Of a stretch of 64,000 bases of DNA, positions 15,092 through 18,651 are shown one piece after another; the first letter of the stretch is position 1, and each line of letters opens with the position of its first letter. This DNA is from an uncultured archaeon (GTDB lineage Archaea > Thermoproteota > Nitrososphaeria > Nitrososphaerales > Gagatemarchaeaceae). The translations under genes and the position numbers were made by a program. Under the pieces are notes generated by a model that saw only the letters and a list, made by a program, of their open reading frames with translations, made no database searches and had not been told where the DNA came from. Location of the stretch: contig CAWCYD010000003.1 of assembly GCA_963799775.1 (NCBI GenBank), positions 672,001 through 736,000 on the forward strand. The letters run 5' to 3'.

Positions 15092-15379
15092 TCAGAGCCG
15101 CAGCCCGAAGGATTGGGCGAAGTCCTCGAACTGGACGTAAGCCTGGAGGAACATGATGCCCTTGTCGCTGATCTTGTACTTTGAGCTCTTCTCTGCCGCC
15201 TCTTCGGTGAGCAAGCCCGCGCCCACCAGCTCCACTATCAGCTTCGTCATCCTAGAGTACGAGACGTTACCGCGTCTGAGCAGAGTCGTTATCCCGACCC
15301 CTTGTCCGTCCTGGTTCAGGTCGCGGGCAGTCGCGAGTACGTCCGCGATGATCTTGCCCTGGGTTCTATACTGGGGCAT
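15092..15379 (-). CDS. Small winged-helix DNA-binding protein
   Basis: YRTQGKIIADVL...ITTLLRRGNVSYSRMTKLIVELVGAGLL...YKISDKG wHTH pattern. Confidence 0.85.
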   Translation of the reverse strand: MPQYRTQGKIIADVLATARDLNQDGQGVGITTLLRRGNVSYSRMTKLIVELVGAGLLTEEAAEKSSKYKISDKGIMFLQAYVQFEDFAQSFGLRL

Positions 15380-16013
15380 TCAAGAACTCTCCTGGCTTTC
15401 TGAACGAGAACTTCAAGACTGGGACGAATAGCGCGACTAGTCCAACTTCCCTCATCAATAGCTGCAAGAATGTTAACAATAGCATGTCCGGCGCCGCGAG
15501 AGAGACCCACCAGCCTGCGGCGAGCATCCCCAGGCCCGTCGCGATGAAGAGCGTGTTAGGGTTCTTTGTCTTCGAGTAGGACAGCGTCGTCTCGAGCACG
15601 CCGTAGAGGATGAAGAAGAATGACAGGCTCTTCAGGACCGTCTCGACGCTCGTGGAGCTGACGGCGAATATGGGCAGGAGGATCAAGAGCGGCCCCAGTC
15701 GCTGTTTGACAACCACGTCCAGGACATGGGAGAACGCCAAGAAGAAGTATCCGACCGTCTGCAGGAACAGCCCGGTGATCAGCAGCGTCGACGGCGAGAA
15801 CTCGGGCCCCTGGAGGTTGGTGAACGCGCCGACGCCTTCCAGGCCCTGGAGGATGAAACCCGCGCCCAGGAAGACGAATGCGGAAGTCAGCCGGAGCATG
15901 GAGGAGCTGCTGGTCTCTCGCAGGCCCTTGTAGGAGACTGCGGCTATGGAGAACGCTACGAATGCCCCAATAAACTGTAGGGCGTTCTCGAACATGACCA
16001 AATCCGGTCCCAC
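15366..16013 (-). CDS. Membrane protein with about 7 TM helices, overlapping the wHTH gene
   Basis: 215 aa, about seven hydrophobic segments with short loops. Confidence 0.75.
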   Translation of the reverse strand: MGPDLVMFENALQFIGAFVAFSIAAVSYKGLRETSSSSMLRLTSAFVFLGAGFILQGLEGVGAFTNLQGPEFSPSTLLITGLFLQTVGYFFLAFSHVLDVVVKQRLGPLLILLPIFAVSSTSVETVLKSLSFFFILYGVLETTLSYSKTKNPNTLFIATGLGMLAAGWWVSLAAPDMLLLTFLQLLMREVGLVALFVPVLKFSFRKPGEFLNAPV

Positions 16014-16134
16014 AGACCTTAACCTAGAGTCCGGAGGGCCGATTGAATATAAAAGCTTGATGTCTGAGCTATGCTAGTTCGTCGGCTCATGGTTGCGAGG
16101 TGGCGCTTAAGTATGCTCACCCGCTTATTGCATG

Positions 16135-16370
16135 ATGTTCGCTGATAGGGGGCTGTCCAGGCTCGCCAGTTCCCTGCCCTCTCTCCGGAGGGCGAAAGGG
16201 CCCGCAGGTGAAGCTATGATTGGAGACCCGGTGACGGCAATCCCAGGAGCAGATGCAGGCAAGTTGACGCTCCGGAAAGAGCCGGAAAGTTGACAGAGCC
16301 GATGCACGAGCGGTCGACGCGGAAACGCTCTGGAAACGCCTTCCGTGAACCTCGCAGGGATTTAGTTTTG
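16135..16370 (+). ncRNA. Candidate structured non-coding RNA (unassigned family)
   Basis: Nested helices 16171-77/16354-60, 16186-94/16337-45, 16218-22/16238-42, 16254-60/16298-306; GNRA hairpins; TATA-like cttaagta 16106-13 upstream; T-rich tract 16361-69 downstream. Confidence 0.55.
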
Positions 16371-16430
16371 CACAACCATTAAATAGGTGTAAAATTATTT
16401 CAATAATAACTCAATCCGGAGTGCAATCGT

Positions 16431-17370
16431 TTGTCATCCGAAAGAGATTTCTCAAGACTGATGAAGTTGCAAAGGGCTCTCGACAAGTGCCCTCGTTGTG
16501 GCAAGGGTCATATGGTCGTTGACAACACGGGCGGGGAGCTCGTTTGCAGTGCCTGCGGTTTCGTGGTCAAAGAAAAGATAGAGGAGACGGGTCCGGAGTG
16601 GCGGGCTTTCTCGAAGGAAGAGAAGGACGACAGGTCCAGAGGAGGGATGCCGACCTCGATCGCGATGCACGACATGGGGCTCGCGACGGTCATCGGCGGG
16701 ACGAACAAGGACGCGTCGGGCAAGTCTCTATCCGGGTCGATGAAGGCGACAGTGGAGAGGCTCAGGACATGGGACAGCAGGAGCCAAGTCCACGAACCCA
16801 TGGACAGGAACCTGAGGCAAGCTTTCAGCGAGCTCGACAGGCTCTCCGACAAGCTCTCTGTCTCAGAGGCCGTCATCGAAAAGGCTGCTTACATCTACAG
16901 AAAGGCGCTCGAGAGAGGTCTGGTGCGCGGCAGGTCGATCTCCGCGATCATTGCGGCATCGCTCTACGCTGCGTGCAGGGACAGGGAGACTCCGAGGGAC
17001 CCTGAAGGACCTCGCTGTGGTATCAAACGTGAAGAAGAAGGACATCGCCAGGTGCTACAGGCTCCTACTCAAGGAGATGGACATCAAGATGCCGGTTGTC
17101 GACCCGGCAAAGTGCGTCTCAAGGATCGCATCCAGGGCGAGCCTCTCCGAGAGGACCAAGAGGAGGGCATTAGAGATATTGAAGAAGGCCGAGGAAGCCA
17201 GGATCTCCGCAGGAAAGGACCCGATGGGGCTGGCCGCAGCCGCGCTCTACGTGTCTTGCACCCTCGAGGGAGAGGACAAGACTCAGAGGGACGTCGCGGA
17301 GGCCGCCGGGGTGACCGAGGTCACGATAAGGAACAGGTACAAGGGCCTGCGTTCCGCGCTGGGCATCTAG
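16431..17370 (+). CDS. tfb: Transcription initiation factor IIB (TFB); frameshift near 16995
   Basis: Zn ribbon CPRC...CSAC, GPEWRAF, HDMGL, GLVRGRSI, GKDPMGLAAAALY, TEVTIRNRYK. Confidence 0.96.
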
Positions 17371-17479
17371 ACGAGTTAGCAAGCGATCCCTGCACGGGAA
17401 GAAAATGGAAGGGAAATTCATATTCGCTTTACATAACCGGTAATATCCATTCACGGTCTGGACTTCAGGTCTCAAGTAC

Positions 17480-18651
17480 TTGTTTTCAGAGGAAGCCCAG
17501 CGTGAAGCCCAGCCCGATTCGAGCGCAAACATCGTCTCCTTGGTCAGGCTTCTCTCCGACATAGGCCCTGACATCGCCGAGATCTCCAGGCGTCTGGGGC
17601 AGTTCAAGGAGAGCGTGAGATACCGCTACAGGGAGAAGGCATAAAGCGAGGTTTTGCAATCAAGGCAGACGTGGACTACGGGGCCCTTGGGTTGACCAGG
17701 GTCGTGATGAAGCTCAGGTTTTCCCCGATGTACACGCAACAGTCCCACAAGATTCTCGAGGTGTTGAGCAATCTATCCTACCTCGTGGCATATGCTGGGA
17801 CGATGCCAAACGATCTCTACATAGTTCATGCAGGCGTCCCCACGGAGTTTACGGAGGAATTCCATCGACTGATGGAGAGCCTCAGGGACCGGGGGATGTT
17901 CATGTCGGTGGAGTTCTATGACTGCAACTGGTTCAGGGTCGCGCCGATGCGGGCGGAATGCTTCAACTTTGACGAGGGTGTCTGGGACTTCGATTGGAGC
18001 AACCCGCCACCGATAGAGGAAAAGGCTGCTCGTGCCACCATCAGCGAGAAGAAACCTCTCGACAAGGTGGACCTTCTCATCGTCAAGGAGCTTTGGAAGG
18101 ACAGTAACCGCTCGCTCGTAGAGATTCGCGAGGCCATCAAGAAAGTGAACGGCGTTGACATCAACTACAAGACTCTCGGGTGGCACTTCGCACACCACGT
18201 GTTGGGACACCACCTGATCAGAGACTACTCGATAACCTGGCACGGCATGAAGTACAACAGCGACCTTCAGCAAATCACGCGAGTCGGGAAGCACGGTTAT
18301 CTTGGGGCGTCGCTCATACTTCGAGAAGCAAATGAACAGGAAAAAATGCTAATGCGAGGCCAACTCAATCGTCTGCCGTTTCTGTGGTCCGAAGCGTCTG
18401 GCGAGGTCTACTACGCACAGCTCTTTTTCCCGCTAGAAATGATTAATGAGGCCCTGGAATATCTCAAGACTCTGCTAAAGCCGTACGGGGATAGAGCCGA
18501 GCTCTTCATTCTAGACAGAAGGGAGATGACGTCATTCACGATAGGTTATCAAATGTGGGACGAGCGAAGCTCCCAATGGAGCTTCGACCGTGAGCGTCTT
18601 CTTGGCCGTCTGGAAAATACACTTCTGAAGGTTGCGGACAGAAGAGCCTAG
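17480..18651 (+). CDS. Large tandem Lrp/AsnC-like transcription regulator (HTH-RAM x2); frameshift near 17640
   Basis: TTG 17480 frame gives IVSLVRLLSDIGPDIAEISRRLGQFKESVRYRY (HTH), joining ORF 17671..18651 (VDYGALGL; second HTH LDKVDLLIVKELWKDSNRSLVEI); both halves end in an aromatic F/W-D-x-x-x-(x)-W-x-F-D motif. Confidence 0.78.

Follow-up and report, generated by a model that had tools for sequence, protein, structure and literature searches.

The 64-kb window analysed here, a stretch of 64,000 nucleotides (nt) from contig CAWCYD010000003.1 of an uncultured archaeon of the Gagatemarchaeaceae (assembly GCA_963799775.1), contains upstream of its tfb gene a piece of about 234 bp, 16067-16300, which is very probably an internally deleted, TnpB-less copy of a tnpB element that has kept the scaffold of the element's omega RNA. 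Intact copies of this element, which are about 1.35 kb long, hold only tnpB and the overlapping omega RNA. What remains of it in the window is a decayed left end with a TATA-like motif, a start codon and about 51 codons, a scaffold of about 160 nt and the right repeat. Judging from its alignment to intact copies, the window copy most likely arose by an internal deletion that joined the tnpB start codon to the last ~51 codons of the gene. The original prediction, which was made from the sequence alone, had seen in this region an unassigned structured RNA, either a stand-alone RNA or a regulatory leader of tfb. The element is of a known kind, a TnpB-less omega-RNA mini-element with a real structure, and does not represent a novel RNA class. 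Homology to tnpB 3′ ends, a conserved structure, the boundary at the right end, the insertion itself and catalytically plausible TnpBs in the genome are each demonstrated.

Homology to tnpB 3′ ends and the omega-RNA scaffold

Four intact tnpB genes of 405-526 amino acids (aa) in the same genome have 3′ ends that share 72-79% identity with the stretch 16136-16300. A DNA search of the own genome and 40 relatives showed that 16141-16300 recurs: four strong paralogues (E 1e-34 to 5e-21, 76-81% identity) and a weaker one lie in the own genome, and other genomes of the genus give matches of lower strength. Each of the four strong paralogues forms, over the part that matches, the 3′ end of an open reading frame (ORF) of 405-526 aa, and each of these ORFs carries the Pfam domain PF07282, the Cas12f1-like TNB domain (4/4, E 1.4e-9 to 2.8e-8). 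The two ORFs that were scanned against NCBIfam both match NF040570, the "RNA-guided endonuclease TnpB family" (guided_TnpB), with an E value of 1e-18. Three residues, D171 (in GVDRN), E255 (ALEDI) and D349 (RDVNA), which by their position we take to be the RuvC-like triad, are invariant in 9/9 aligned TnpBs. A domesticated guide system of the TldR type, with a nuclease-dead TnpB as repressor and a guide aimed at a host promoter, was considered and rejected, as D, E and D are kept in all nine TnpBs and the guide position matches only its own flank.

The window itself retains an ORF of 53 codons, 16132-16293, which aligns by blastp to TnpB residues 356-410 with 32 of 55 positions identical (E 3e-15) and matches no Pfam family. 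At the nucleotide level the window copy is 79% identical to its nearest paralogue (c502). Among the four copies of the own genome, the stop codons of TnpB and the frames of its tail differ over the last ~15 codons, with the nucleotides and base pairs conserved, a sign that the 3′ end is constrained as RNA.

Six copies of the own genome, the window copy included, were aligned (A1) and turned into a covariance model, R1, of 178 positions and 52 pairs. R1 has 16 matches in the own genome, and 19 of the 23 genomes of the genus, counting this one, contain a match; the single match of R1 in the window is 16136-16300, with 147 bits. In a collection of 80 loci that were gathered from public species-representative genomes by TnpB protein patterns alone, and whose record titles name Nitrososphaerota/Thaumarchaeota, Bathyarchaeia and a few others, R1 matches at the 3′ end of tnpB in 79. 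Ten of the 16 own-genome copies follow a tnpB ORF of 390-526 aa and four an ORF of 201-244 aa; the two with short ORFs are the window copy (53 aa) and C3:1156793 (105 aa). Across the 35 aligned copies, 19 follow an ORF of at least 368 aa. The conservation ends at ...ACAGA(G/A)CC in every aligned copy, which corresponds to ...ACAGAGCC at 16300 in the window, and the sequence that comes later is unique to each locus. Because the likeness among copies stops at 16300, the DNA downstream is flank and occupies the guide position of an omega RNA. A scaffold that overlaps the tnpB 3′ end, a boundary at the right end of the element and a flank as the putative guide are together, as far as sequence can tell, the anatomy of a TnpB omega RNA.

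The structure of the scaffold is conserved across the family. In the alignment of the 35 R1 matches to the model (A2), 89.2% of the cells are standard pairs, compared with 36-47% when the partners are slid by 1-3 columns; both sides vary in 39 of the 52 pairs, and in 500 shuffles not one of the five measures was attained. The helices H2-H8 are 86-98% paired (H2-H7, 88-98%), and the outermost three-pair helix (helix 1 of the first model) is unsupported, at 44.8%. RNAalifold, applied to A2, makes a prediction of its own that comprises 29 pairs in the cores of H2, H4, H5, H6 and H7, 20 of which show compensatory changes. The control with slid partners and the many GC-to-CG swaps argue that the covariation signal is real. 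In addition, H3 ranges among the copies from none to about 80 nt with its stem retained, which likewise indicates constraint at the RNA level.

Every motif named in the original prediction is present in the window at its stated position (Table 1), and the gap of more than 400 bp that it described measures 417 bp between the ORFs at 15366-16013 (minus strand) and 16431-17564 (plus strand). The idea of a structured, multi-helix RNA is borne out by covariation; the fold that had been drawn mostly differs from the conserved one. Only GATTG/CAATC and the CCG/CGG pairing that it closes coincide with covariation-backed helices, namely H5 and H6. The two long-range helices, 16171/16354 and 16186/16337, and the pairing TGCAGGC/GCC-ga-TGCA all have their 3′ partners in host flank beyond the end of the element and are for this reason not a property of the family. 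This flank is also found in relatives without the element, in the upstream sequences of their tfb orthologues. In the family fold, 16171-16175 and 16187-16193 form the 3′ strands of H2 and of the hairpin H3, respectively. The GCG-GAAA-CGC hairpin (16319-16329) lies in host flank as well, GCTC/GAGC falls in the length-variable loop of H7, and the two copies of AAGTTGAC are largely the two strands of H7, since GUUGAC pairs with itself through G-U. Folding energy alone stays at the level of chance, with a minimum free energy of -92.1 kcal/mol and a z score of -0.63 on the plus strand (56/200 shuffles fold equally well or better) and a z score of -0.11 on the minus strand (93/200); the comparative data speak for more than chance, yet for another fold.

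Rfam offers no identity for this RNA, with 0 matches at the gathering score across the whole window. A permissive scan of 15950-16480 (E ≤10) gave only mir-2070 (15.6 bits) and a partial snoR118 (15 bits), whose E values of 2.4-2.5 are at chance level, and no match to RNase P, signal recognition particle (SRP), riboswitch or C/D RNAs was found within 16136-16300 at E 10. What is known of the family comes from the literature and not from Rfam; its homologues and their covariation are both abundant, and its homology to tnpB 3′ ends and to a guide-RNA scaffold removes it from the unassigned RNA classes. An identity as RNase P or SRP RNA was rejected, as both RNAs lie elsewhere on the same contig (160.5 bits for RNase P RNA; 85.7 bits for SRP RNA, which is below the cut-off of 96.5). 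A reading of ATGATG and CTGA as C and D boxes was rejected too: CTGA follows only 4 nt after ATGATG, which does not fit the spacing rule of the C/D arrangement.

Insertion upstream of tfb and the state of the window copy

The best tfb orthologue was taken from each of 20 other genomes of the genus and the upstream regions were compared. In 16 of the 20 orthologous loci the site is uninterrupted and reads TATAAAAG-(C/T)TTGATG-CA or a variant of it, a count that was made by eye, as a regular expression caught only nine. One of the remaining loci is occupied (G018) and three cannot be judged, one because of a short contig and two because of different upstream regions. Seven near relatives have 157-160 nt between the site and the ATG of tfb and an eighth has 185 nt, compared with 398 nt in the window. 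The junctions in the window read ...AAGCTTGATG | TCTGAGC...ACAGAGCC | GATGCACGAGCGG..., and the empty sites read ...AAGCTTGATGCAC.... Because the site is uninterrupted in these 16 loci, the ~234-bp piece 16067-16300 is an insertion; the target of the element was the conserved site TATAAAAGCTT / GATGCAC, which lies some 160 bp before tfb, and the insertion duplicated about 8 bp.

Upstream of the tfb orthologues, R1 has a match in G018 only, so a check for non-mobile, orthologous copies finds one occupied locus out of 20, and the occupant belongs to another subfamily. The conserved A/T-rich, promoter-like block of tfb itself lies downstream of the insertion. The proposal of a regulatory leader is largely refuted by the absence of the insertion from 16 of the 20 orthologous loci; the position upstream of tfb is accidental, with no demonstrated link to tfb regulation. 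The proposal of a stand-alone RNA holds to the extent that no protein gene now adjoins the scaffold, and fails as to its origin, which is a tnpB element.

Compared with the empty site, the extra DNA begins at 16059-16063, about 75 nt before the scaffold. Three blocks of this left stretch, TCGGCTCATG, GGCGCTTAAGTATGCTC and ...GCATG, line up in order with the left ends of intact copies, and the ATG of the last block aligns with the start codon of copy c665. A profile built from four intact left ends scores 2.1 bits on 16014-16140, a score that 7 of 2000 shuffles reach, and GGTGGCGCTTAAGTATGCTC differs very little from the left-end motif of L065, which is a copy without tnpB in another genome. 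The coding core was probably deleted with both ends kept, of which the right end is clear and the left end is only moderately supported; the boundary given by the empty sites, at about 16063-16067, agrees with it.

In its present state, the window copy retains 41 of the 49 supported pairs; gaps remove 3 others. It deviates from the family at 3 of the 65 columns that are at least 85% conserved. Two of these, 16224 and 16225, carry changed bases where 34/35 sequences agree, and their change breaks an otherwise invariant G-C pair of H5; the third, 16287, differs from the base found in 30/35. The two innermost pairs of H7 are broken as well. The left inverted repeat agrees with the right one at 11 of 20 positions, and the left duplication agrees with the right one at 5 of 8.

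Table 1. Features of the tnpB-derived element, its flanks and the motifs of the original prediction (positions in the window)
Feature	Position	Strand	Basis or remark
Host left flank, conserved TATA-like ATATAAAAG then CTT	16047-16058	.	same motif directly before GATGCA in 16/20 element-free loci
Left copy of target duplication, degenerate GATGTCTG	16059-16066	+	empty-site comparison; right copy GATGCACG, 5/8
Left-end remnant	16067-16131	+	alignment to left ends; degenerate left inverted repeat 16067-16086, TCGGCTCATG 16082-16091
Left-end motif GGCGCTTAAGTATGCTC	16102-16118	+	within 16067-16131; contains TATA-like TTAAGTAT 16107-16114
Residual ORF, 53 codons	16132-16293	+	blastp; tnpB start codon fused in frame to last ~51 codons
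Omega-RNA scaffold	16136-16300	+	R1 147 bits; 41/49 supported pairs formed
H2	16147-16159 with 16163-16175	+	12 pairs, 9 double changes, 94% paired
H3, variable-length hairpin	16176-16182 with 16187-16193	+	10 pairs, 9 double changes, 87.8% paired
H4	16200-16210 with 16250-16260	+	5/9 pairs double changes; encloses H5, H6
H5	16221-16225 with 16241-16245	+	covariation model, inside H4
H6	16228-16230 with 16235-16237	+	3/3 pairs double changes; GC-to-CG swaps in 15/35 sequences
H7	16263-16270 with 16287-16294	+	8/8 pairs double changes, 92% paired
H8	16274-16275 with 16282-16283	+	within variable loop of H7
Right terminal inverted repeat	16281-16300	+	overlaps H7 3′ strand and tail
Right copy of target duplication GATGCACG (16301-16308) and putative guide	16301-16320	+	continues empty site of relatives
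Host intergenic DNA: GCG-GAAA-CGC, GAACCTCGCAGGGA block, T-tract 16361-16369, tfb promoter-like region	16321-16460	+	counterparts in element-free relatives
tfb	16461-17564	+	Pfam TFIIB and Zn ribbon; one-base frameshift near 16993-16998
TCCCTGC / GCAGGGA	16171-16177 / 16354-16360		outer pairing of original prediction
CGGAGGGCG / CGCCTTCCG	16186-16194 / 16337-16345		second long-range pairing of original prediction
GATTG/CAATC closing CCG-GTGA-CGG	16218-16242		motif of original prediction
AAGTTGAC, repeated	16261 and 16287		motif of original prediction
ATGATG; CTGA	16132; 16142		motifs of original prediction
T-tract	16361-16369		motif of original prediction
TATA-like motifs	16047-16055 and 16107-16114		original prediction names a TATA-like box

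The surroundings of the insertion show some further features. The block TATAAAAG(C/T)TTGATGCA is kept in 16/20 relatives about 160-260 nt upstream of tfb; after it come about 95 nt of low conservation, then a GAACCTT..GGGG block that is conserved, and a T-tract. The first block may act as promoter for the divergent 215-aa gene or for a short transcript upstream. At L073 (G022:C2), upstream of another tfb orthologue, the usual site is missing and the sequence ...TTGGACAGAGCC|CAGAGTCGGGG... resembles the right end of another element; R1 has no match in this upstream region at E 1. The tfb product of the window is matched by its orthologues (94-97%) over residues 1-179 only, after which an unrelated sequence rich in R, G and E follows, and the missing C-terminal half (...TLKDLAVVSNVKKKD...) can be read in frame at 16951-17370. 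The frameshift is likely an extra base in a G run, as a real pseudogene or an assembly indel. Two further TFB paralogues exist in the genome. The neighbours at 15366-16013 (minus strand, 215 aa) and 17671-18651 (plus strand, 326 aa) match no Pfam family at E 0.001.

Ends, target sites and gene-less copies of the family

Direct repeats of at least 8 nt flank 16/35 copies, compared with 12/175 controls with mismatched flanks, and in a wider set, which overlaps the first in part, 22/72 copies compared with 9/360 controls. These repeats differ from copy to copy, and copies other than that of the window carry exact duplications of 7-10 nt. The ends are terminal inverted repeats of about 20 nt: at least 13 of the 20 positions agree in 9 of 23 elements, compared with 0 of 1150 shuffles, and some public copies have perfect inverted repeats of 22 nt. 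The IS200/IS605 family, the tnpB-only IS1341 group included, has by definition neither inverted repeats nor a target duplication but subterminal hairpins, as described in the part of a 2026 review drawn on here (PMC13565253). A Y1 (HUH) TnpA transposase (PF01797), which mobilises that family, was not found in the own genome at E 0.01, this genome being 81.67% complete and a past transposase possible. Because of the inverted repeats and duplications at its ends and the failure to find Y1 TnpA, the family is not filed under IS200/IS605. Inverted terminal repeats around DDE-associated TnpBs, and solo TnpBs with the same ends, are among the cases described in the sections consulted of Altae-Tran et al. 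(2023; PMC10691335), and the same review, in the part used, calls the association of TnpB with transposition other than that of IS605/IS607 rare in prokaryotes (PMC13565253).

A partner transposase was sought through the repeats themselves. With a 12-mer repeat pattern, 62 hits were obtained, which is near chance by a rough estimate made without a computed control. With a 20-mer pattern, only an unrelated insertion sequence (IS) of 1186 bp with different ends was recovered, and no partner transposase was found in the own genome. The 1186-bp IS is present in five copies that are 100% identical (C2:335657-336843 and C3 near 1518284, 1540433, 1637502 and 1870625), has perfect inverted repeats of 17 bp (CAGTATCTCCGAATGA...) that are unrelated to the ends of the TnpB element, and encodes a transposase ORF of 367 aa; it is probably active. 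The only Cas1-like ORF has 628 aa (G000:C3:1829545-1831431; L094 694-2580) and a weak Cas1 domain at residues 270-543 (29.7 bits). Its surroundings show neither TnpB-type inverted repeats nor a duplication, and a helix-turn-helix gene lies nearby.

The target sites of the family have a pattern of their own. In the left flank, T stands at position -2 of the duplication in 18/23 copies of the first set and 22/29 of the wider set, and at -3 in 14/23 and 15/29, respectively; further out, A or T is found in 17-19 of 23 copies at each position from -13 to -7 and in 16-23 of 29 from -14 to -7. A run with seven of eight positions A/T occurs in 14/23 left flanks compared with 5/23 right flanks of the first set. 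The proposed preferred site is an A/T-rich, TATA-box-like block, then about four bases, and then TT(R). This suggests a target preference beside TATA-like promoter elements, in a comparison where general intergenic A/T richness is uncontrolled, and TT(R) may be the transposon-adjacent motif of a guide whose first bases would be the duplicated 8 nt. The occupant of the tfb locus in G018 (L078/L061, G018:C1:348137-349500, minus strand) is an intact 419-aa tnpB element of another subfamily, which is 67% identical to the window scaffold, has the duplication TGCACTGG and lies in the same orientation 2 bp from the insertion point of the window copy. Two subfamilies have entered the same conserved TATAAAAGCTTGATGCAC site upstream of tfb, 2 bp apart, in two species.

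TnpB-less copies are found elsewhere in the family. Seven other copies without tnpB among the 35 aligned have a left end, defined by their duplication, at 101-197 nt from the scaffold. The copies L065 (G014), L051 and L069 (both G003) and L068 (G016) have in common their left end, the scaffold and an additional 5′ hairpin (GAGGACGGGTC...CCGTCTGA). On this shared architecture, the four look like a proliferating guide-RNA family that resembles miniature inverted-repeat transposable elements (MITEs), distinct from the one-off deletion of the window. With more doubt than confidence, we propose that this TnpB family may not belong to IS200/IS605 at all and may consist of transposase-less elements with inverted repeats and 8-bp duplications that insert beside archaeal promoters, in which case the gene-less forms, made up of a left end with a TATA-like motif and the scaffold, would be free-standing guide-RNA genes that depend on TnpB provided in trans.

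Alternative explanations and relation to known systems

If the window copy were expressed, transcription would start from the left-end motif 16107-16114 or from the host TATA-like motif 16047-16055. The transcript could then fold into helices H2-H7 and carry the flank from 16301 as a guide of perhaps 16-20 nt, a role and a length suggested by analogy, and it might be loaded in trans by a catalytically intact TnpB of a paralogous element, with its own insertion site in the unoccupied form as target. According to the passage of the preprint of Meers et al. relied on here (10.1101/2023.03.14.532601), PATEs, which are protein-less derivatives of IS605 type, "often encode omega RNAs", and these must be used in trans. 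A BLAST search with 16050-16450 showed no second site for the guide position 16301-16320 beyond chance matches of 14 nt. On the evidence of its sequence, a slowly decaying relic is judged more likely than a working guide, because the left repeat and the left duplication are degenerate, 16224 and 16225 are changed and two pairs of H7 are broken.

A guide-only gene that still works, with the TATA-like motif of the left end as promoter and a TnpB supplied in trans that cleaves unoccupied sites, is compatible with the identity proposed here and is a rather unlikely addition to it. Such a gene could protect or spread the insertion, or the host could have co-opted it. Most of the scaffold is intact, with 41/49 pairs and only 3/65 conserved columns changed, three to four TnpBs in the genome combine the same scaffold type with the invariant D-E-D triad, and TnpB-less copies recur in other genomes. 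The motif at 16107-16114 lies about 25-30 nt before the 5′ end of the scaffold, in line with the usual archaeal promoter spacing. The use of such RNAs in trans is also accepted in the literature, as far as the portion of Meers et al. (10.1101/2023.03.14.532601) used here goes. However, the broken pairs of H5 and H7 and the decayed left repeat and duplication speak against a working gene, and for a single copy without an orthologue purifying selection cannot be measured.

The reading of 16067-16300 as an internally deleted copy also has to be weighed against a plain 5′-truncated tnpB fragment, in which the DNA upstream of about 16136 was lost by an unrelated deletion, and several observations count against the internal deletion. 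The similarity at the left end is weak, with a profile score of only 2.1 bits and a marginal match of the inverted repeats whose 11/20 falls inside the shuffled range (maximum 12); a genome-wide scan with the left-end profile (E 10) recovered its four sources and a few weak left ends and missed the window site, and the automated search found no exact duplication for the window copy. Further caveats bear on the identification as a whole. The 147 bits of the scaffold are partly circular, as the window copy is one of the six seeds of R1, which does not apply to the BLAST matches, and A2 was fitted to the structure of R1, which biases its counts towards that structure. On the protein side, the NF040570 score of 67.6 bits is below the curated cut-off of 100 bits, and a sequence search of the PDB with a TnpB of the family gave 0 matches; because of this empty search, the TnpBs of the family are, by sequence, placed as a divergent member or clade of TnpB. 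As regards decay, without the gapped pairs the window copy forms 41/46, which is similar to copies beside an intact tnpB and does not make it an outlier, and the assembly may hold indel errors, so that the four tnpB ORFs of 201-244 aa need not be pseudogenes. A truncation is nonetheless improbable: the extra DNA starts at 16059-16063 and is collinear with the left-end blocks TCGGCTCATG, GGCGCTTA... and ...GCATG, GGTGGCGCTTAAGTATGCTC is close to identical with the motif of L065, only 7/2000 shuffles reach the profile score, and the ORF begins exactly at the aligned start codon.

Two further readings have very little left in their favour. A novel structured RNA of the host or a cis-regulatory leader of tfb, as originally suggested, would account for a structured, intergenic sequence upstream of tfb with no Rfam match and a T-tract behind it; it can hardly be reconciled with the absence of the piece from 16/20 orthologous loci, its place upstream of the promoter-like block of tfb itself, the homology to tnpB 3′ ends at 15 other sites of the genome, the lack of conservation of the helices that would tie the RNA to the downstream flank, and the presence of RNase P and SRP RNAs elsewhere. 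It is just as improbable that the 53-codon ORF 16132-16293 is a real gene for a small protein and that the conservation is at the protein level. The frame is open, has an ATG and is collinear with the TnpB tail, where R359, G360, G378, E382, D398 and other residues are invariant in nine TnpBs, but the product would be without catalytic or zinc-finger parts and belongs to no Pfam family. In addition, 58% amino acid identity at 76% nucleotide identity is no better than drift by a rough, uncomputed estimate, and the last ~15 codons of the paralogues change frame and stop with nucleotides and base pairs conserved.

The internally deleted tnpB element shares its main features with the omega RNA of TnpB (reRNA; ISDra2-type, OMEGA), which is likewise a structured RNA of about 150-200 nt over the 3′ end of tnpB. 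As in IS200/IS605, it ends at the right end of the element, takes the flank as guide and has a T-rich motif 5′ of the presumed target; unlike there, it has no Rfam match, its ends carry repeats of about 20 bp and duplications of about 8 bp, and tnpB is gone in the window. In PATEs, as presented in the parts of Dyall-Smith et al. (2011; PMC3119063) and Meers et al. (10.1101/2023.03.14.532601) drawn on here, the core is similarly deleted with the ends left behind and the guide needs TnpB in trans. The same parts give PATEs subterminal palindromes and neither inverted repeats nor duplications, whereas the ends of the window mini-element are MITE-like; moreover, the window copy is single, old and decayed, and not a proliferating family. 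The solo TnpB elements of DDE-type and Asgard-Cas1-type transposons, as covered in the consulted sections of PMC10691335, also have tnpB alone between symmetric ends, with 250 bp at most between the tnpB 3′ end and the end of the transposon, and mobilisation in trans is presumed for them. The window family could not be assigned to any of the branches named in those sections, and no partner transposase with matching ends was found in the genome. The RNA-guided nuclease Fanzor likewise travels with its guide RNA in transposons that have inverted repeats and make target duplications (PMC13565253, in the part used), but in eukaryotic hosts, as opposed to the archaeal host here. According to the same part of that review, Fanzor1 takes the 3′ duplication into its scaffold (PMC13565253), whereas here the duplicated 8 nt vary freely after the scaffold and would form the start of the guide.

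With this identification, an apparently novel archaeal RNA of 200 nt is removed as a false lead. What is gained is a structure backed by covariation, together with a usable covariance model, for the omega RNA of an archaeal TnpB clade that is divergent, lies outside Rfam and by sequence has no solved relative. The compact TnpBs of about 410 aa, with their defined scaffold, are of interest as small genome-editing nucleases. The carriers with inverted repeats and 8-bp duplications bear on how RNA-guided nucleases pair with transposition other than that of IS605/IS607, and the inverted repeats, duplications and target pattern of this family are the part that is worth a specialist's second look.

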